A stretch of DNA of 39,249 nucleotides from a virus (Duplodnaviria; Heunggongvirae; Uroviricota; Caudoviricetes). Positions 3,186-35,643 of the stretch are shown here, one piece after another. Numbering within the stretch: the stretch's first letter is position 1; each line of letters starts with the position of its first letter. The translations under genes were made by a program, and so were the position numbers. The notes under the pieces were generated by a model, which was given only the letters and a program-made list of their open reading frames with translations, did not search any database and had not been told where the DNA came from. The stretch covers positions 1 through 39,249 of IMG/VR virus record IMGVR_UViG_2861079508_000003; one strand, given 5' to 3'.

Positions 3186-3733
3186 TGGTTGCCTCCTTTG
3201 CGAAGCTGGTCGGCGAACAAACGTACACCAGACGCTTCACTGCGTAGAAACTTAACGGCATAATCAAAACCACCTCGTTCTGCGTCGTCTGCTCCGTTGT
3301 CGAGGTTATCTGCGTACATCTCTACCCCCTGCGCCCGTACTTCAGCCAGGAAAGCATCGGTGGCTGGGGTTTCGATATCGTTAATTTCAGGAAGAATCTC
3401 TTCCCATGTGGCGATATCGCCATTCAAATGCCATCCGGCAATTCCACTGGAGTTATCCGCAACACTGCGAACGGCTTCAATAGTTTCGAGCATTACCGCA
3501 TTCTCCGCCGCAAGCGCCGAAAACTTCTCGTGTGCCAACTTAACAGCCGCATCAGCCTGCTTAATTGACTCAATCGCTTTCTGGTGGTCTTCGGACAGAG
3601 CCGAAATCTTGGCCTCCGCTTCAGCAAATTTACGCACCAGATATTCAGCGTTTGTTTCGTTAACCTTTAAATCTCGTGGGATGCATTTACCTTTCAGAAA
3701 ACCATCTATCTCAATTAGTGACATTTGTTTCAT
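3182..3733 (-). CDS. Ead/Ea22-like protein (183 aa)
   Basis: Similar composition and position to the neighbouring Ea22-like gene; coupled start/stop overlaps. Confidence 0.5.
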
Positions 3734-4892: not shown

Positions 4893-5497
4893 TAAGCAGC
4901 CGCTCCTTCTAATTCGTCTCGTCTGATGTTGTAAACGTCCTGCGCTTTGTGCTGCTCCGGTGTGCCTTCGAGCATCTTCCACGCTTTGGCGAACGCCTGT
5001 TTAAGCTCTTCTACGGTGTTTTTCTGCAATGCTGCGTCAGTGAATGCTTTTAGAACCTGTTCAGGTGTAGGTGATGGTTTTGATTGCTTTGCTGCTGCGT
5101 TCTGCTGATGTTTATGCTCGTCGGTATCTGCATCTTTCGCATCATCAATGCCGAACAAACCATTGAGGCAATACTTGCGTGCATAAGAGCTTGTAGCTCC
5201 AGTAACTTGTGCAGAATCCATTCCTTTCTTGCTTTCTTCCTCTCGTGCAAGAGCGGTTGCCGTATGACTGTTTTCGCCATCGGTAATAGTTGCCGTGGCT
5301 TTCACATAATACCGATCACCAATCAACACAACTTCATCGCTGATTGATAAAAACAGGCCATTCAGTAACGGCTTAACGCCTTCAAGAATGTCTTCGCAGC
5401 TTCTGTATTTATATTTACCGAATGAGTTGTACTGATTTTTTGGCGCATTCAGATTCTCCTGAATGGCTGCCAGTCTTGCGTAAAATTCTTTGCTCAT
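4892..5497 (-). CDS. erf: Essential recombination function protein Erf (single-strand annealing protein)
   Basis: From ATG at 5497 the N-terminus MSKEFYARLAAIQENLNAPKNQYNSFGKYKYRSCEDILEGVKPLL.. closely matches recalled P22 Erf; the track's longer form starts at an upstream alternative codon. Confidence 0.85.
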   Translation of the reverse strand: MSKEFYARLAAIQENLNAPKNQYNSFGKYKYRSCEDILEGVKPLLNGLFLSISDEVVLIGDRYYVKATATITDGENSHTATALAREEESKKGMDSAQVTGATSSYARKYCLNGLFGIDDAKDADTDEHKHQQNAAAKQSKPSPTPEQVLKAFTDAALQKNTVEELKQAFAKAWKMLEGTPEQHKAQDVYNIRRDELEGAAA

Positions 5498-5598
5498 ATG
5501 TTTGTTCTCAGAATGGACATTCCCCAAGGAAATAACGCTGATTTAATACTTCGACTCGGGACAAATTAAGGCATACCAGCATTCCTTCGCGGTCGCCA

Positions 5599-5757
5599 TT
5601 ATGGCGATACCAGAGAGCTTTCTGCGTGTACATGCGTCTCTGTAACTTGCTCTCCTTCACTGTGGTTGCAAGTGACATGAATATCTCCTTCGTTACCGAT
5701 TAATTCTTTCATCTGACGAATGAATTCTTCGTCTGACCAGTTATCTGTAAAACTCAT
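5599..5757 (-). CDS. Hypothetical small protein at the kil position (about 52 aa)
   Basis: Internal ATG overlaps the cIII stop (ATGA); in lambdoid phages the gene after cIII is kil. Function inferred from position only. Confidence 0.35.
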   Translation of the reverse strand: MSFTDNWSDEEFIRQMKELIGNEGDIHVTCNHSEGEQVTETHVHAESSLVSP

Positions 5758-5924
5758 GGACGGCCTTGTTGTTTCAAAATATCCCAAAGCTTTTCGAGCA
5801 AACTTTTCATTCTTGGTTGTTTAAAGTCTGCTCCGGTTAAAATATTTTTTCGTGAATGCTGCACCGATAAAATCGGGTTGAAAGGGCGAACCGATGCCGC
5901 CCCTGCAATAGCGAACTGTTGCAT
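5754..5924 (-). CDS. cIII: CIII-like protein (FtsH inhibitor; 56 aa from internal ATG)
   Basis: MQQFAIAG...SLLEKLWDILKQQG parallels lambda CIII (MQYAIAG...SLLERI..LIDILNQPG); AGGAG RBS upstream; correct place in the PL operon. Confidence 0.65.
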   Translation of the reverse strand: MQQFAIAGAASVRPFNPILSVQHSRKNILTGADFKQPRMKSLLEKLWDILKQQGRP

Positions 5925-5988
5925 AGGATGCTCCTTCTGTTTGATTGCATAACGAAAACGCCTCAAGTGAAGCGTTATTGGTATGCAT

Positions 5989-6014
5989 ATAAAAAAGCCC
6001 TCGCACTGGAGGGC
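5989..6014 (-). terminator. Putative rho-independent terminator in the PL operon (tL-like)
   Basis: Hairpin GCCCTC-GCACTG-GAGGGC followed on the minus strand by a T-run; lies upstream of cIII, presumably read through under N antitermination. Confidence 0.5.
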
Positions 6015-6150
6015 AAAGAAGATTTCCAATAATCAGAACAAGTCGACTCCTGTTTAGTTACGAGCGACATTGCTCCGTGTATTCACTCGCTGGAATGAAT
6101 ACACAGTGCAGTGTTTATTCTGTTATTTATGCCAAAAATAAAGGCCACCA

Positions 6151-6402
6151 TCAGGCAGCCTTGTTGTAAATGTTGCAGGTATCAAGTAAGTAATTAGATG
6201 GAGCGCCATAAATTATGAATTCATCGTTTGTCGGGTCCATCTCCATCTCTTGGCCTATTGCCATTCTTGCGTCAGTGTCATCAGCGGCGAAGCATAAAAC
6301 AGCCCACGCACCCATTGTTTTAAAAAGAACTGCAATTGGCTGTGGTTTTACTGAATTTGCGTTAGCGCGAAAATCACAAATCGCACTTTCATGAAATTCC
6401 AT
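6151..6402 (-). CDS. Hypothetical protein (83 aa); C-terminus ..NKAA faintly reminiscent of Ral
   Basis: ORF in the N-to-cIII interval where ral/sieB-type accessory genes lie in lambdoid phages; similarity to Ral is weak and limited to the C-terminal end. Confidence 0.45.
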   Translation of the reverse strand: MEFHESAICDFRANANSVKPQPIAVLFKTMGAWAVLCFAADDTDARMAIGQEMEMDPTNDEFIIYGAPSNYLLDTCNIYNKAA

Positions 6403-6464
6403 ATATCACCTCAAATAAGTGGTTTGCTGCCAAAACAATGAACCATCCGGAAATTCCAGATAGT

Positions 6465-6692
6465 TCATAATTCACTCTTCAATACTTCCAACTTACTAAT
6501 CGCCGATAGATATCCGCGCTGATAGGGCATCATCATTCCTTCGAGCTTGCCACTTCTTAACTCCTCCCTGAGCAATTGTATTGCTTGATCAATAACCTCT
6601 GCCTTAGCGTCCTTTATGGCTTGCTTGCGGGGCTTTGCTTTCTGCTTTGGCAGATTTCTCAAGCATGATGGAATGTATGTCTGATTCATCAC
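6465..6692 (-). CDS. Hypothetical protein (75 aa)
   Basis: ORF immediately downstream of N in the same orientation. Confidence 0.45.
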   Translation of the reverse strand: MMNQTYIPSCLRNLPKQKAKPRKQAIKDAKAEVIDQAIQLLREELRSGKLEGMMMPYQRGYLSAISKLEVLKSEL

Positions 6693-7001
6693 TTACCTCG
6701 CTGTAACCTGCTTACTTGTACGATGACCAGCTGCGAAAAGCGCAACTTCTGGCAAACAAACGCTTCCGCTATTCGCATCTGTATTTGATTTGCTAATGAT
6801 GCCGAGTGATATTGCTTTTTCAGAAATGCTTAAACGCTTTCTCGGGGCTTCCTGAACAGGTTCCTCACTGTCTGTGCCGAAGATCGAATCGATGATGTTG
6901 CATATAGCATCACGCTCGATAGCCAGCTTTCTGCGCCGCTCATGACGGCGAGTTTTGGCATTTCCTGCAAATGTTGATTTTCCGTACACGATTACCGTCA
7001 T
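6693..7001 (-). CDS. N: Antitermination protein N, P22 gene 24 type (102 aa)
   Basis: From ATG at 7001: MTVIVYGKSTFAGNAKTRRHERRRKLAIERD.. carries the Arg-rich motif and closely matches recalled P22 gp24; nutL lies upstream. Confidence 0.8.
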   Translation of the reverse strand: MTVIVYGKSTFAGNAKTRRHERRRKLAIERDAICNIIDSIFGTDSEEPVQEAPRKRLSISEKAISLGIISKSNTDANSGSVCLPEVALFAAGHRTSKQVTAR

Positions 7002-7120
7002 GATATTTTCCTCATGTGAAATGGCTTTGGTGGTGATGCGCCAGGTGCTGATCTTCTGGTTGCTGTCGTTGCAGCTGCAATTCACATCACCGCCAAACCC
7101 ATCTCGTTTGGTATCTGTTT

Positions 7121-7154
7121 GCGCTTTGTCAGCGCCCCATCGAAGTTAAAGAGC
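7121..7154 (-). promoter_or_regulatory. nutL (boxA GCTCTTTAAC plus boxB hairpin GCGCT-GACAA-AGCGC)
   Basis: Read on the minus strand, a boxA-like sequence is followed 9 nt later by a 5-bp stem with a GACAA loop, between PL and N; matches P22-type nut sites from memory. Confidence 0.6.
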
Positions 7155-7200
7155 CTGCCAATCTGTTCCGTTTGGCTTCCAGCTTCCTGCTGATGGCTAA

Positions 7201-7229
7201 ATAGTACGATGTGTACTTTATTGAGTCAA
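7201..7229 (-). promoter_or_regulatory. Putative PL promoter (-35 TTGACT, 17-bp spacer, -10 TACTAT on minus strand)
   Basis: Sigma70-like hexamers upstream of nutL/N, overlapping an operator dyad. Confidence 0.5.
7203..7217. promoter_or_regulatory. Operator-like dyad in OL (AGTAC-GATGT-GTACT)
   Basis: Perfect 5-bp inverted half-sites with 5-bp spacer, overlapping the PL -10; near-identical copies occur in OR. Weaker related sites near 7228-7242 and 7262-7276. Confidence 0.5.
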
Positions 7230-7302
7230 TACAAAATGTTCTAAATGTGGTTGGTTTTTTATAACACTTTGTATTTTATTGATTTATATTTTGGAAAAAG
7301 AA

Positions 7303-7324
7303 AACCCGACGCTAAGGTCGGGTT
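7303..7324 (-). terminator. Rho-independent terminator downstream of the repressor gene
   Basis: 8-bp stem AACCCGAC/GTCGGGTT with 6-nt loop, followed on the minus strand by TCTTTTTCC; about 30 bp past the cI stop. Confidence 0.55.
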
Positions 7325-7354
7325 ATTGTTGTGTGTTTTAGAGTGGTGAGGCTG

Positions 7355-8014
7355 TTAACTAAATGTCTCTTCAGGCCACTGGCTGGCGATAACTTTCCCT
7401 ACTACGGAACAGCTATCATTGCATGGGATCATTGGATATTGCGGGTTTAGTGGTTGTAGGAACACCTGACCGCTATCCCTGATCAGTTTCTTGAAGGTAA
7501 ACTCGTCACCGCCAAGTCTGGCTATGCAGAAATCTCCTGGCTCAACAGCCTGCTCAGGGTCAACGAGAATTAACATTCCGTCAGGAAAGCTTGGCTTGGA
7601 TCCTGTTGGTGCGGTCATGGAATTACCTTCAACTTCAAGCCAAAACGCACAATCACTGGCTTTTTTGGTTGTGCTGACCCATCTCTCCGCATCACCTTTG
7701 GTAAAGGTTCTAAGCTCAGGTGAGAACATCCCGGCCTGAACATGAGAAAAAACAGGGTACTCATATTGTTTTTTAACGGGGGCAGATGAGTATTCGCCAG
7801 CAGGTGAAAATGTACCGTCGTGGTTGAATGAGACGTTATCAATACCAAGGTATTTAAACACCACACCAATCTCGTCAAGAGATGGATGACGAGATCCGCG
7901 CAACCAGTGACCAATTCCACCCTGCGTCATACCAAGCTCTTCAGCTAACTTCTCTTGAGTTATGCCGAGCTCTTTCATTCTGGATCTAGCCAGTTCATAC
8001 CATTTCATTTTCAT
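7355..8014 (-). CDS. cI: CI-type prophage repressor (HTH N-domain, LexA/S24-like autocleavage C-domain; 219 aa)
   Basis: N-terminal HTH (..[21 protein letters not shown]..) and C-terminal domain with ..[22 protein letters not shown].. as in P22 C2 / lambda CI; divergent from cro across an operator region. Confidence 0.85.
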
Positions 8015-8023
8015 ATCCTTATT

Positions 8024-8038
8024 ATTACGCTATGTACT
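8024..8038. promoter_or_regulatory. Operator-like dyad in OR (ATTAC-GCTAT-GTACT)
   Basis: Matches the OL site at 12 of 15 positions; close to the repressor start, consistent with a PRM-proximal operator. Confidence 0.4.
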
Positions 8039-8070
8039 AAAACCATCCATGCACAAGATGTATTTTTTGT

Positions 8071-8099
8071 TTGCATTCCAAAAGTACATATCGTATTAT
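8071..8099 (+). promoter_or_regulatory. Putative PR promoter (-35 TTGCAT, 17-bp spacer, -10 TATTAT)
   Basis: Sigma70-like hexamers about 30 bp upstream of cro (RBS GGAG at 8117); spacer and -10 overlap an operator dyad. Confidence 0.5.
8083..8097. promoter_or_regulatory. Operator-like dyad in OR (reverse complement AATAC-GATAT-GTACT)
   Basis: 13 of 15 identical to the OL site, in inverted orientation, overlapping PR. Confidence 0.5.
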
Positions 8100-8125
8100 T
8101 GTTTCATGGTTACTATGGAGGGCAT

Positions 8126-8341
8126 ATGAGCAACCTACGAAAATATCGAGAGTCACTGAATATCTCTCAAACAACACTTGCTAAGGCAGTTGGATGCACA
8201 CAGGGAGCTATCGGACATTGGGAATCTGGTCGTCGCTTCCCAGACCTTAAAACATGCCGTGCTCTTGTTGCGTGCCTAAACAAGTTAGGCGCAAAAGTCA
8301 GTCTTGATGACGTGTTCCCGCCGGAACACAAAGCCGCTTAA
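8126..8341 (+). CDS. cro: Cro-like HTH regulator (71 aa from ATG at 8126)
   Basis: Short XRE-type HTH protein (..LNISQTTLAKAVGCTQGAIGHWESG..) divergent from the repressor, with RBS; the track's longer form has an implausible N-terminal extension. Confidence 0.8.
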   Translation: MSNLRKYRESLNISQTTLAKAVGCTQGAIGHWESGRRFPDLKTCRALVACLNKLGAKVSLDDVFPPEHKAA

Positions 8342-8352
8342 TAAGCGGATCC

Positions 8353-8386
8353 GCTCTTTATCAATCTGCACCGCCGACAACGCGGT
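8353..8386 (+). promoter_or_regulatory. nutR (boxA CGCTCTTTA plus boxB-like hairpin with GACAA loop)
   Basis: boxA-like sequence just downstream of cro followed by ACCGC-CGACAAC-GCGGT; same loop motif as nutL. Confidence 0.55.
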
Positions 8387-8450
8387 AACTAATTAATCGC
8401 TCATCGAAAGATGAGTATTAGTGATTATTTACCTATGGAAATAGTAAGAA

Positions 8451-8747
8451 ATGGAACAAACAAGTTACAGCAAACTATCACAGCGCGACGTTGATCGCGC
8501 AGAAACAGATTTACTCATCAACCTGTCAACGCTTACCCAGCGCGGTCTGGCAAAGATGATTGGCTGTCATGAATCGAAGATAAGCAGAACGGACTGGAGA
8601 TTTATTGCTTCGGTCTTGTGTGCTTTTGGAATGGCATCAGACATCAGTCCGATTAGCAGGGCTTTTAAGTATGCGCTTGATGGACTCACCAATAAAAAAC
8701 GCCCGGCGGATATTTTCGCTGAGAATCAGTTAACCATGAATTTTTAA
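8451..8747 (+). CDS. cII: CII-like transcriptional activator (98 aa)
   Basis: ..CHESKISRTDWRFI.. and ..GLTNKKRPA.. parallel lambda CII (..DKSQISRWKRDWI.., ..ILTNKKRPA..); position after cro/nutR. Confidence 0.8.
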   Translation: MEQTSYSKLSQRDVDRAETDLLINLSTLTQRGLAKMIGCHESKISRTDWRFIASVLCAFGMASDISPISRAFKYALDGLTNKKRPADIFAENQLTMNF

Positions 8748-32700: not shown

Positions 32701-34697
32701 TGGCTAAAGCATGGAAAGATGTTATCGCCTCTCCACAGTATCAGGCGTTAGCACCAGAACAAAAAGCGCAGGCTCAGGAGCAATACTTCAATGAAGTCGT
32801 TGCCCCGCAAGCCGGAGAAAATGCAGAGCAGGCTAAGCAAGCTTTCTATGCTGCCTATCCATTGCCATCTGTGCAGCCAGTGGATACACAGCAACCAGTA
32901 GCACAGCAACAACCGCAGCAAAGTGGATTTATGTCTGATCTTGGTGAAGCAGTGAAAGAGACTGGTCGCGGACTGGTGCAGGCTGGCGTGAACGTGGCAA
33001 ACATACCTGCATCAGTTGCAGATGCTGTAACAAGCGCGGCGGCTTGGGCTGGCGGTAAACTCGGCATTGGCGATGGTACATATCAACCAGCGCCACGAGT
33101 AACAACGCAGGGATTAGAGCAGGACTTTGGCCTTCAGCAAGGCGCGCTTACTCCACAAACGACAGAGGGAAGGGTATTTGCTGAAGCATTGCCTTACCTC
33201 ACTCCTGCTGGCGTTGAGAGAGCGGCAGCGCAGGCACCAACACTTGCTGGTCGAATTGCTCAGGGGGCAACTCGCCTTCTGGCAGAAAACGCAGTTGGAT
33301 CACTTGCTGCAAATAGTGCGAAAGATGATGCGGAAGCACTCGCCACCGATTTAGGCGTTGGTGTACTTACTGGCGGTGCTATTAACGCTGCCGGACGTGG
33401 ATTAGGTGCTGCTTATCGTGGCGTTCGTGGTGCTATCGCGCCAGAAGCGCAGCAGGCTATCAGATTTGCAGAGCGTGAAGGAGTTCCTCTGCACACCACA
33501 GACCTGTTACAACCAACTTCCCGCGTCGGAAAAATGGCGCAGACTACAGCAGAAAATATCCCTCTGGCTGGCACAAGCGGAATGAGAGCAACGCAACAGG
33601 AAGCGAGAAGCCAGTTGGTGCAGAGATTTGCTGATAAATTCGGTGAGTATGATCCAGCGGTTGTTATTGACAGCCTTAAAGCGAAAACATCAGGAATTCG
33701 TCGTGCCGCCGGTAATCGACTGGAGCAGGTTCAGAATGCTATGGCTGGAGTAAACATTCAGCCTGCTCGAGCAATTCAGCAGATTGATACAGAAATATCT
33801 AATCTGCAGAAGCTTGGTAAGGTCGCCGATAACGAGACTATTTCAAAACTTCAGTCCTATCGTGATGAGCTTGTTCGCAATGCTGGTCCTGATGGTCCGG
33901 TAAATCTGGATTTGAAGCAATTAAGCGACCTGCGCAGTCAGTTCAGAATGGACGTGAAGGGTGAGCGACCAGTGTTACCAAACCGTTCCGATGCTGCCAT
34001 TCAGCGCGTTTACAAGGCAATGACTGACGATATCAATGGTGCCATTGGTCAGAATCTTGGCAACGATACTCTCCGTAAATATCAGCAGGCCAATGCCGTC
34101 TATGCTGACGAAGCTGCGAAACTAAAGAATACCAGGCTGAAGAATGTTCTCATGAAAGGCGATCTGACGCCGGAAGTTGTCAACAACATGCTATTCAGCA
34201 AGAACAAATCGGAAATTAAGAATCTGTATAACTCAGTTGGTCGTGTTGGCAGGGCGCAAATGCGCAATGGCATCATTGGAAAGGCGATGGAGAAATCTGG
34301 CGGATCCCCTGACCAGTTCCTTCGACAGCTTAACATCCTGCAAAACCAGACTGGCATCACATTTAAGGGGCAGGACGCTGCTTATCTGAAAGGATTGAAA
34401 AACTACCTGCAATCCACGCAGCAGGCTGCAAAAGCGGCAGTAACAACACCAACAGGGCAGCAAACCATCCCGTTCATTATCGGATATGGGACAGCAATGA
34501 ACCCGGCGACAACTGGCGCAGCAGTAAGCTACGGACTTCTTACTCGCGCATATGAGAGCGAGCCATTCAGAAATGCAATGCTCCGAATGGCAAACACCCC
34601 ACGCGGATCAACAGCCTTTGAGAAAGCAATGCAGCAGGCACAAAAGGCAATTAACGCTCTGACGCAGGGGGCTAAGTCTGATGCGTTGTCAGAATAG
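32700..34697 (+). CDS. Ejection protein, P22 gp16 type (665 aa)
   Basis: Synteny and size (P22 gp16 about 609 aa); last gene of the rightward structural operon before converging minus-strand genes. Confidence 0.7.
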   Translation: MAKAWKDVIASPQYQALAPEQKAQAQEQYFNEVVAPQAGENAEQAKQAFYAAYPLPSVQPVDTQQPVAQQQPQQSGFMSDLGEAVKETGRGLVQAGVNVANIPASVADAVTSAAAWAGGKLGIGDGTYQPAPRVTTQGLEQDFGLQQGALTPQTTEGRVFAEALPYLTPAGVERAAAQAPTLAGRIAQGATRLLAENAVGSLAANSAKDDAEALATDLGVGVLTGGAINAAGRGLGAAYRGVRGAIAPEAQQAIRFAEREGVPLHTTDLLQPTSRVGKMAQTTAENIPLAGTSGMRATQQEARSQLVQRFADKFGEYDPAVVIDSLKAKTSGIRRAAGNRLEQVQNAMAGVNIQPARAIQQIDTEISNLQKLGKVADNETISKLQSYRDELVRNAGPDGPVNLDLKQLSDLRSQFRMDVKGERPVLPNRSDAAIQRVYKAMTDDINGAIGQNLGNDTLRKYQQANAVYADEAAKLKNTRLKNVLMKGDLTPEVVNNMLFSKNKSEIKNLYNSVGRVGRAQMRNGIIGKAMEKSGGSPDQFLRQLNILQNQTGITFKGQDAAYLKGLKNYLQSTQQAAKAAVTTPTGQQTIPFIIGYGTAMNPATTGAAVSYGLLTRAYESEPFRNAMLRMANTPRGSTAFEKAMQQAQKAINALTQGAKSDALSE

Positions 34698-35343: not shown

Positions 35344-35643
35344 CTATGTTTCCTTTTTATTATTGCTATACATGGTCTTAAGCGTATCAAAGACAATTTT
35401 CTTAACCATCTCAGATTGTTGTTCTGCCATACGCTCTGCATCGTCAATGTAAACAGATGCAGAGCTTTCTTTAGCCAATGATTCTTCAATCGCTGCAATT
35501 ATCTCTGAGTTCAGAGACCTGTTATTCATCTTCGCACGCTGTTTAATCTTCGCGTGGAGTTCATGCGGAAGTCTCAAGTGAAACTGCGCCTCGTCGTATT
35601 TGCTGTACATCCTTGATGCCTCACCAGTTGGGTGGAATGGCAT
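35344..35643 (-). CDS. mnt: Mnt-like ribbon-helix-helix repressor (Arc/MetJ family)
   Basis: ..FHLRLPHELHAKIKQRAKMNNRSLNSEIIAAIEESL.....DDAERMAEQQSEMVKKIVFDTLKTMY.. parallels recalled P22 Mnt; start could be Met1 or Met12 (35610). Confidence 0.7.
   Translation of the reverse strand: MPFHPTGEASRMYSKYDEAQFHLRLPHELHAKIKQRAKMNNRSLNSEIIAAIEESLAKESSASVYIDDAERMAEQQSEMVKKIVFDTLKTMYSNNKKET

Follow-up and report, generated by a model that had tools for sequence, protein, structure and literature searches.

A copy of the phage small RNA PreS, with a structurally conserved hairpin at its 5' boundary, in the N-to-cIII interval of a P22-like lambdoid phage

DicF, encoded in the dicB operon of the Qin prophage, is an Hfq-dependent small RNA (sRNA) that is released endonucleolytically from the early operon of a lambdoid prophage, reportedly by RNase E and RNase III, and represses ftsZ. 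The lambda sRNA LPR1, since renamed PreS (Phage replication enhancer sRNA), is likewise Hfq-dependent, lies between ea10 and ral, is present only in the lytic cycle as an ~88-nt and a processed ~68-nt species whose 3' end is the terminator tL2a, and acts through a seed to activate translation of dnaN and to repress alaS, with a boost to the DNA-replication machinery of the host as the described effect (Silverman et al., bioRxiv 10.1101/2024.10.31.621285). Here we describe the corresponding region of a 39,249-nucleotide stretch of viral DNA (Caudoviricetes; IMG/VR record IMGVR_UViG_2861079508_000003, positions 1 to 39,249; hereafter the window), in which two small genes and a perfect 9-bp inverted repeat had been predicted between the N antiterminator gene and cIII. 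This interval belongs to the leftward early (pL) operon, and it carries a copy of PreS. The inverted repeat is the core of a hairpin, hairpin 1, in RNA of the pL sense, and the sRNA begins at the foot of its 3' arm. PreS itself has been known since 2024; what is new is a copy in a new gene context.

The PreS homologue occupies positions 5991..6075 on the minus strand, as defined by homology to lambda lpr1 in the form cloned in Table S5 of the preprint (GAGCAATGTCGCTCGTAACT ... CCTCCAGTGTGAGGGCGATTTTTTA, primers GAGCAATGTCGC...GAGGGCGATTTTTTA), a table that also lists an 18-nt seed deletion, lpr1-delta-seed, and M1, in which CTG is mutated (bioRxiv 10.1101/2024.10.31.621285). Of 87 aligned positions, 83 (95%) are the same as in lambda, and there is a single 2-nt gap, values within the ≥92% identity and ≤3 gaps by which the preprint's authors recognise homologues (bioRxiv 10.1101/2024.10.31.621285). 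The differences are a C-to-U change in a bulge at 6046, a changed base in the terminator loop (6003) and the loss of 2 nt ahead of the U-run. Following hairpin 2 (6068-6042), the 18-nt seed TGTTCTGATTATTGGAAA (6040-6023) is identical to that of lambda, and its duplex with the dnaN leader is predicted at -40.8 kcal/mol, as opposed to -22.4 ± 4.1 kcal/mol for shuffled sequences. The 3' end is formed by a Rho-independent terminator detected by scan and annotated as tL2A in phage Sf6 (6014-5997, U6 tail 5996-5991), reading GCCCTC-CAGTGC-GAGGGC and then T6 on the minus strand, that is, in the pL sense. Identity to the lambda ral-ea10 spacer is 94–98% over 6109-5991 on the minus strand; over 5985-6155 the same range of identity extends to 334 phage records, including lambda itself (33921-34092, the ral-ea10 spacer), and BLAST against lambda over the wider 170 nt gave 95.9%. 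The module was also found in 2250 of 5426 complete Escherichia coli genomes. PreS is without an Rfam model, and a scan of 5000-8500 against Rfam 15 gave no match at E ≤ 1. As judged by these tools and the literature, the module is a copy of PreS/LPR1 together with a 5' hairpin.

In lambda, as here, PreS comes last, just ahead of the terminator, among the elements of the N-to-cIII part of the pL operon and lies on the pL-sense strand, with the same seed, a terminator of the tL2a type with a U-tail, and an upstream hairpin differing from ours by one loop base. The neighbours differ, the lambda copy being flanked by ral upstream and ea10 downstream whereas here an orphan gene for an 83-amino-acid (83-aa) protein and cIII take these places, and the 5' flanking hairpin is absent from the preprint's description (bioRxiv 10.1101/2024.10.31.621285). 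Other sRNAs of lambdoid phages were considered as well. RalA of the rac prophage shares Hfq dependence and a position beside a ral-like gene, but it is encoded in antisense orientation within ydaC and targets ralR mRNA by way of a 16-nt repeat (PMC4041452), and kinship was rejected on locus, sequence and mechanism. AgvB/AsxR anti-sRNAs and Pas sRNAs, which are located in the late (PR') region, were likewise set aside as unrelated. A parallel is offered by DicF, an Hfq-dependent sRNA within a lambdoid early polycistronic transcript that also targets a host cell-cycle gene; its sequence is unrelated (no Rfam match here) and it represses ftsZ where PreS activates dnaN.

The seed region itself (6023-6040, minus strand) resembles the antisense of the 3' end of E. 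coli dnaA in two blocks, TGTTCTGATTA and AAATCTTCTTTG, a resemblance that points to captured host sequence as a possible origin of the seed. Overlapping it, at 6039-6051 on the minus strand, AGGAG is followed at Shine-Dalgarno-like spacing by a two-codon mini open reading frame (ORF), UUG-UUC-UGA in the lambda type and AUG-UUC-UGA in a diverged type from Enterobacter (L131:3418-3440); it is kept in both lineages and may be a simple by-product of the antisense match to the dnaA 3' end. Two longer reading frames were dismissed as spurious, a 31-aa ORF at 5975-6070, with its ATG inside PreS and a Shine-Dalgarno sequence only 2 nt upstream, which by eye is not kept in the Enterobacter type, and a 30-aa plus-strand ORF at 6077-6169, which starts with GTG and overlaps the hairpin. 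We also considered and rejected masking of the seed by an upstream 'anti-seed', suggested by pairing of 6127-6115 with 6041-6028 in the minimum free energy fold, as this duplex is no better than those formed by shuffled A+U-rich flanks (z ~ -0.5) and the pairing is absent from other left flanks.

The perfect repeat, GTGTATTCA-N10-TGAATACAC, lies exactly at 6077-6104 as originally predicted. By itself it is not above chance, four perfect 9-bp repeats with spacers of 3–20 nt being present in the window against 3.4 ± 2.1 in dinucleotide shuffles; other perfect inverted repeats lie at 7869-7895 (9 bp, 9-nt spacer, inside the cI-like repressor gene) and at 35433-35465 (10 bp, 13-nt spacer). Its significance is in its extension to 14–17 bp, with G-U pairs, in the pL-sense RNA, in its conservation and in its adjacency to PreS. 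In the folds, hairpin 1 (6071..6110, minus strand) has the repeat (6104-6077) as its core and consists of 14 contiguous pairs (6106-6093 with 6088-6075) around a tetraloop at 6092-6089, to which three outer pairs beyond an A-A mismatch are added, giving 17 pairs in all between 6110 and 6071. PreS +1 is 6075, just past the end of the repeat's 3' arm at 6077. G6075 pairs with C6106, which places the annotated 5' end of PreS on the closing pair of the 14-bp stem, at the bottom of its 3' arm. The isolated hairpin is more stable in the sense than in the antisense orientation (-17.7 versus -13.1 kcal/mol), as is the fold of a 181-nt RNA (-64.5 kcal/mol, z = -6.3, versus -52.2 kcal/mol, z = -3.8).

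These features bear on two other explanations of the repeat. A DNA operator for a dimeric phage or host protein would fit a perfect 9-bp dyad with a 10-bp spacer in an early regulatory operon; a dyad of this length is, however, expected by chance in the window, the motif occurs there only once, and the 14-bp pairing depends on G-U pairs that are valid in pL-sense RNA but not in DNA or in the antisense strand. Alternatively, the repeat could belong to the tL2 termination cluster, as a pause or termination hairpin for RNA polymerase unmodified by N. It lies 60 nt upstream of tL2a, in an interval dense in terminator-like hairpins (8 found by scan, including 6468-6438, 6162-6141, 6014-5997 and 5976-5957, versus 1.7 expected), yet hairpin 1 was not called a terminator by the scan, and its A+U-rich stem is not followed by a U-tract (the next bases are ...ACACGGAGCAAUGUCGC; GGAGCAAUGUCGC). 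The diverged hairpins described below also lack U-tracts, and we regard termination as a very improbable function for the element.

The original prediction named absence of the repeat from relatives as a point that would refute it, and the repeat is conserved. The block 6109-5997 hardly varies among 123 IMG/VR copies (82 distinct), and it begins at the foot of hairpin 1 whatever lies upstream, with more than 10 unrelated alternatives on its left flank and several on its right. Most of the rare substitutions are in the tetraloop of hairpin 1 (6090, 6089), in the loop or bulge of hairpin 2 (6056, 6046) and in the terminator loop. Such a pattern would also be given by a repeat that has no function of its own, either as a passenger in a boundary sequence that supplies homology for recombination or as sequence conserved through the neighbouring PreS and tL2a. 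Indeed, the block equals the 'boundary sequence' bsq4 of Sf6 (AF547987) together with its 'terminator, homology to lambda tL2A', and is found at module switch points; the flanks switch among many alternatives exactly at both of its edges, the repeat does not stand out within the lambda type, where conservation is much the same throughout, and a truncated hairpin is tolerated in HK022. The block here nevertheless differs from bsq4 as annotated in having a concrete product, PreS with its flanking hairpin, beyond recombination homology. Against the repeat being a passenger, no junction falls between hairpin and PreS in the 82 distinct haplotypes, though several lie just upstream, at 6109-6167.

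Diverged versions of the module speak more directly to the stem. An Enterobacter-type PreS was reached through a homologue of the 83-aa protein in an Enterobacter cloacae prophage (L131; the PreS-like element lies at 3355-3490, upstream of cIII) and is also present at L132, L198 and L210, in the spacer before cIII; two Enterobacter-type loci were added through an IMG/VR scan followed by a filter. Elements of this kind would be missed by a BLAST criterion of 92% identity. The layout comprises a 14-bp hairpin, a second hairpin containing CUAAAGGAG, the seed AUGUUCUGAUUAA, AUCUUC and a different terminator. Thirteen nucleotides of this seed are complementary to the dnaA-dnaN junction, a longer match than that of lambda. 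When the 14 pairs of hairpin 1 were counted by script against the lambda type, 7 were unchanged, 6 were changed on both sides, 1 was changed on one side and none was broken; a script was used since the MAFFT alignment, which registers the 5' arms and the seed, is one column off in the 3' arm as the loops differ by 1 nt. The Enterobacter-type hairpin again favours the sense strand (-14.3 versus -7.5 kcal/mol). In mEp043 (L266:780-830), PreS is kept exactly from the base equivalent to 6075 onward and an unrelated 11-bp hairpin abuts it, one hairpin having been exchanged for another rather than for unstructured sequence. The arms are wholly different in the Enterobacter type and in mEp043 while pairing is kept, and any protein bound to an operator would have had to co-vary with them.

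In these sequences, a stable stem at the 5' boundary of PreS is preserved by compensation or by replacement, on the pL-sense strand, which argues for a role at the RNA level and against both a DNA operator and pure hitch-hiking. With half of the 14 stem pairs changed in the Enterobacter type and all of them still paired, we consider it unlikely that the repeat is a functionless passenger, and we find an operator barely credible. Searches elsewhere gave no further divergent copies: the seed-plus-terminator pattern in representatives of GTDB returned lambda-type copies and chance matches only, and the Citrobacter and Klebsiella loci with the 83-aa gene yielded no PreS to blastn or nhmmer. Exact lambda-type matches to this pattern do occur on tiny, low-coverage GTDB contigs (L134, L139, L140, L148, L163 and others) assigned to Pseudoxanthomonas, Lacrimispora, Bradyrhizobium, Arthrobacter and Kitasatospora; their presence in such unrelated taxa looks like contamination of the assemblies with lambda DNA.

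We infer that hairpin 1 bounds or processes the precursor of PreS, which would be cut from the pL transcript within a variable accessory slot of the pL operon, and we give this explanation as a whole a probability of roughly 0.6. No sigma-70-like promoter was found by scan upstream of 6075, and none was seen that is common to the three hairpin types; since LPR1 appears only when pL is active, excision from the pL transcript is the simplest origin. Hairpin 1 would act in the polycistronic pL RNA as the 5' boundary of the PreS precursor, where it would define or assist an endonucleolytic cut that frees an sRNA of ~85–88 nt. RNase III, cutting close to the base of the stem, is the favoured candidate because the 5' end of PreS lies inside the duplex, and a cut by RNase E beside the stem is the alternative. 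The upstream mRNA would be left with a 3'-terminal hairpin that could shield it from exonucleases. RNase E would be the more likely source of the ~68-nt form, which would begin within the A/U-rich loop of hairpin 2. The freed PreS would, by homology with lambda, bind Hfq, its seed would pair with the dnaA-dnaN junction, and translation of DnaN would rise during lytic growth.

Several points weigh against this explanation. RNase III accommodates intramolecular duplexes of some two helical turns (~22 bp) in which the positions between the staggered cuts are paired, as a rule with at least one G-C (PMC6212723), and the stem of hairpin 1, with 14 contiguous pairs and 3 more across the A-A mismatch, is at 17 pairs shorter than this canonical length. 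The preprint's text and supplements give no promoter, RNase or hairpin for the 5' end of PreS, and the lambda 5' end is itself drawn from read coverage and northern size and may be a few nucleotides off (bioRxiv 10.1101/2024.10.31.621285). In HK022 (L267:440-520) an insertion of ~10 nt displaces the 5' arm and leaves a hairpin of only 6 bp, which indicates that a strong hairpin is not indispensable. Conservation within the lambda type is too high for a covariation signal, and the covariation argument consists of one diverged lineage and one replacement. The PreS of this phage, moreover, is known here from its sequence, and the two small proteins of the interval from sequence and models.

A wider interpretation, which is possible but which we hold only tentatively, is that the hairpin serves specifically in the maturation of a broader family of pL-embedded sRNAs, that PreS is an ancient module under structural constraint, spread across Enterobacterales prophages and released from the early transcript under nuclease control, and that one or both of the protein families phrog_2471 and phrog_5305, described below, are new anti-defence or host-takeover factors. 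In at least three divergent versions (the lambda, Enterobacter and mEp043 types) a stable stem stands exactly at the 5' end of the sRNA, and in each of the two lineages that bear a seed there is complementarity to the host dnaA-dnaN junction.

The window as a whole derives from a lambdoid (P22-like) mosaic phage, the closest match of the stretch being Escherichia phage JEP4, a Lederbergvirus, and its immunity-left region is transcribed from the minus strand. The upstream edge of the interval is formed by N (6693..7001, minus strand), a P22 gp24-like antiterminator assigned to PF25694 (N_peptide, E 3.3e-38) and phrog_271, whose true start, read from the sequence, is the ATG at 7001; a cI-like repressor gene (7355-8014) lies upstream of it. 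The downstream edge is cIII (5754..5924, minus strand; phrog_550, E 1e-22). The names originally given to these two genes thus agree with the profile matches, and the 75-aa and 83-aa ORFs reported between them are present on the minus strand at the positions given. The range originally set for the feature, 6030-6692, does hold these contents, but the functional unit that includes the repeat reaches to 5991 and so runs past that range. About 230 nt between the 83-aa ORF and cIII are without a credible ORF. Between tL2a and the start of cIII there is a further terminator-like hairpin (5957-5976, minus strand), AACGCTTCACTTGAGGCGTT followed by TTCGTT, which is common to JEP4 and HK106 and is not found in lambda.

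In order after N, the slot holds a gene for a 74-aa protein, a 20-codon relic, the 83-aa orphan and the non-coding module of hairpin and PreS that ends at tL2a. The suggestion that lambdoid phages carry exclusion and anti-restriction functions (ral, sieB) in this interval fits a variable accessory slot: at least about 12 unrelated genes, the commonest being ral, stand directly upstream of the conserved non-coding module in other phages. With so many unrelated genes in one slot, position alone does not predict function.

The 74-aa protein (6465..6689, minus strand) matches phrog_5305 (E 4.8e-38), a PHROG of unknown function. It had been described as a 75-aa ORF (6465-6692) starting at the GTG at 6692; homologues start at the next codon, the ATG at 6689 (MNQTY), and a 74-aa product is the more likely. 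Its 69 relatives are all from Enterobacterales, reaching Pantoea, and all are hypothetical; the ratio of nonsynonymous to synonymous substitution rates (dN/dS) is 0.17. An AlphaFold2 model with a mean predicted local distance difference test (pLDDT) score of 85 consists of a basic N-terminal tail followed by a helical hairpin (helices 22-46 and 55-74), for which Foldseek returned nothing with E < 1 in PDB and BFVD. The gene is always in pL operons between N and kil/cIII, with varied neighbours. In one prophage, Gad1 (PF25705, a Gabija anti-defence protein) is encoded two genes downstream of it (L263:3307-4281), and in another an Nmad5-domain protein (PF18757) directly upstream (L265:1841-2464), neighbours that underline the N-to-cIII slot as a collector of anti-defence cargo.

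The second gene (6151..6402, minus strand) encodes an 83-aa alpha/beta orphan protein of phrog_2471, equivalent to VT2-Sakai H0090, ORF c61 of Stx2 II (Stx, Shiga toxin) and HK106_042. A search of 5.8 billion sequences gave 19 relatives, and a profile run in full against 1.84 billion gave 5 cluster representatives; all are from Enterobacteriaceae. The gene stands near the front of the pL operon, adjoining N or separated from it by small ORFs only, and its dN/dS is 0.09–0.17. Another 83-aa ORF, which follows the 74-aa gene in Enterobacter prophages, belongs to a different family and was excluded, the equal length being coincidental. Neither protein gave anything meaningful against Pfam, NCBIfam or PADLOC, the sole PADLOC match being marginal (E 0.015), nor anything below E 0.05 against PDB sequence profiles. 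The earlier view that both are of no named family is in keeping with these searches, in which only function-unknown PHROGs were matched and no informative fold emerged. From sequence comparison, both are genuine early genes, narrowly distributed orphans of Enterobacterales prophages under purifying selection; given the slot they occupy, they are most likely host-takeover or anti-defence accessories.

More specific roles had been hinted at, namely that the 83-aa protein, which ends in NKAA like lambda Ral, is related to it, and that the 75-aa ORF (here 74 aa) mediates exclusion. The 83-aa gene does occupy the exact slot of lambda ral, directly upstream of the same hairpin and PreS module, and the two proteins are similar in size (66 aa for Ral) and share a C-terminal KAA; the slot carries anti-defence genes in other prophages, Gad1 for example, and both genes are early and under purifying selection. 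The sequences themselves do not bear out the kinship. BLASTP gives no alignment of the 83-aa protein to lambda Ral. Against PF11058 lambda Ral scores 1.6e-48, but the 83-aa protein matches neither this nor any other Pfam family at E ≤ 1, and the Cys-rich N-terminal motif of Ral is, by eye, absent from it. The NKAA ending is real but is explained at the DNA level and not by kinship. A terminator-like hairpin found by scan (6133..6162, minus strand; 9 pairs, 5 of them G-C) covers the stop codon of the 83-aa gene; its RNA reads AAGGCUGCC-UGAU-GGUGGCCUU and then UAUUUUUG (in DNA, AAGGCTGCC-TGAT-GGTGGCCTT and a T-rich tail), with the stop codon in the loop, and the stretch of DNA identity with lambda starts at ACAACAAGGCTGCCTGA. 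K-A-A-stop is common to the 83-aa protein and Ral because the last codons form the 5' arm of this shared hairpin. The same hairpin, with changed pairs, is found in homologues from Citrobacter (KQAA), Klebsiella (KQAV) and Enterobacter (KAA), and also at gene 34 of Sf6. With the shared ending accounted for in this way, with at least 12 unrelated genes known from the slot, and with a marginal PADLOC match and no informative fold match for either protein, it is quite improbable that the 83-aa protein is analogous to Ral in function, or very remotely related to it, and that the 74-aa protein mediates exclusion. Nothing was found that links the two proteins mechanistically to each other or to Ral.

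Between the two genes, a 20-codon relic (6406..6468, minus strand; MNYLEFPDGSLFWQQ|TTYLR*; MNYLEFPDGSLFWQQTTYLR*) is the start of a displaced gene that follows the 74-aa gene in Enterobacter prophages; the translation of L263:2722-2973 begins with the same MNYLEFPDGSLFWQQ. A 14-bp terminator-like hairpin detected by scan (6468-6438) lies inside it. The mosaic junction is at ~6425-6431, and homology to the module of Stx phages (83-aa gene, hairpin and PreS) starts at ~6431. The relic ORF overlaps the stop codon of the 74-aa gene (ATGA), and its own stop overlaps the ribosome-binding site of the 83-aa gene.

With this analysis, an inverted repeat that lacked an explanation becomes a concrete, testable proposal for how a recently described phage sRNA is produced. 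The supposed Ral-like C-terminus falls away as a false lead, and two small families of early genes are put on record as candidates to be screened for anti-defence activity. New here are the conservation of the hairpin's structure, the Enterobacter-type variant of PreS and the exchange of hairpins in mEp043. PreS is carried in about 40% of complete E. coli genomes, Stx prophages included, and the diverged elements suggest that the PreS family is broader than BLAST at ≥92% identity reveals.

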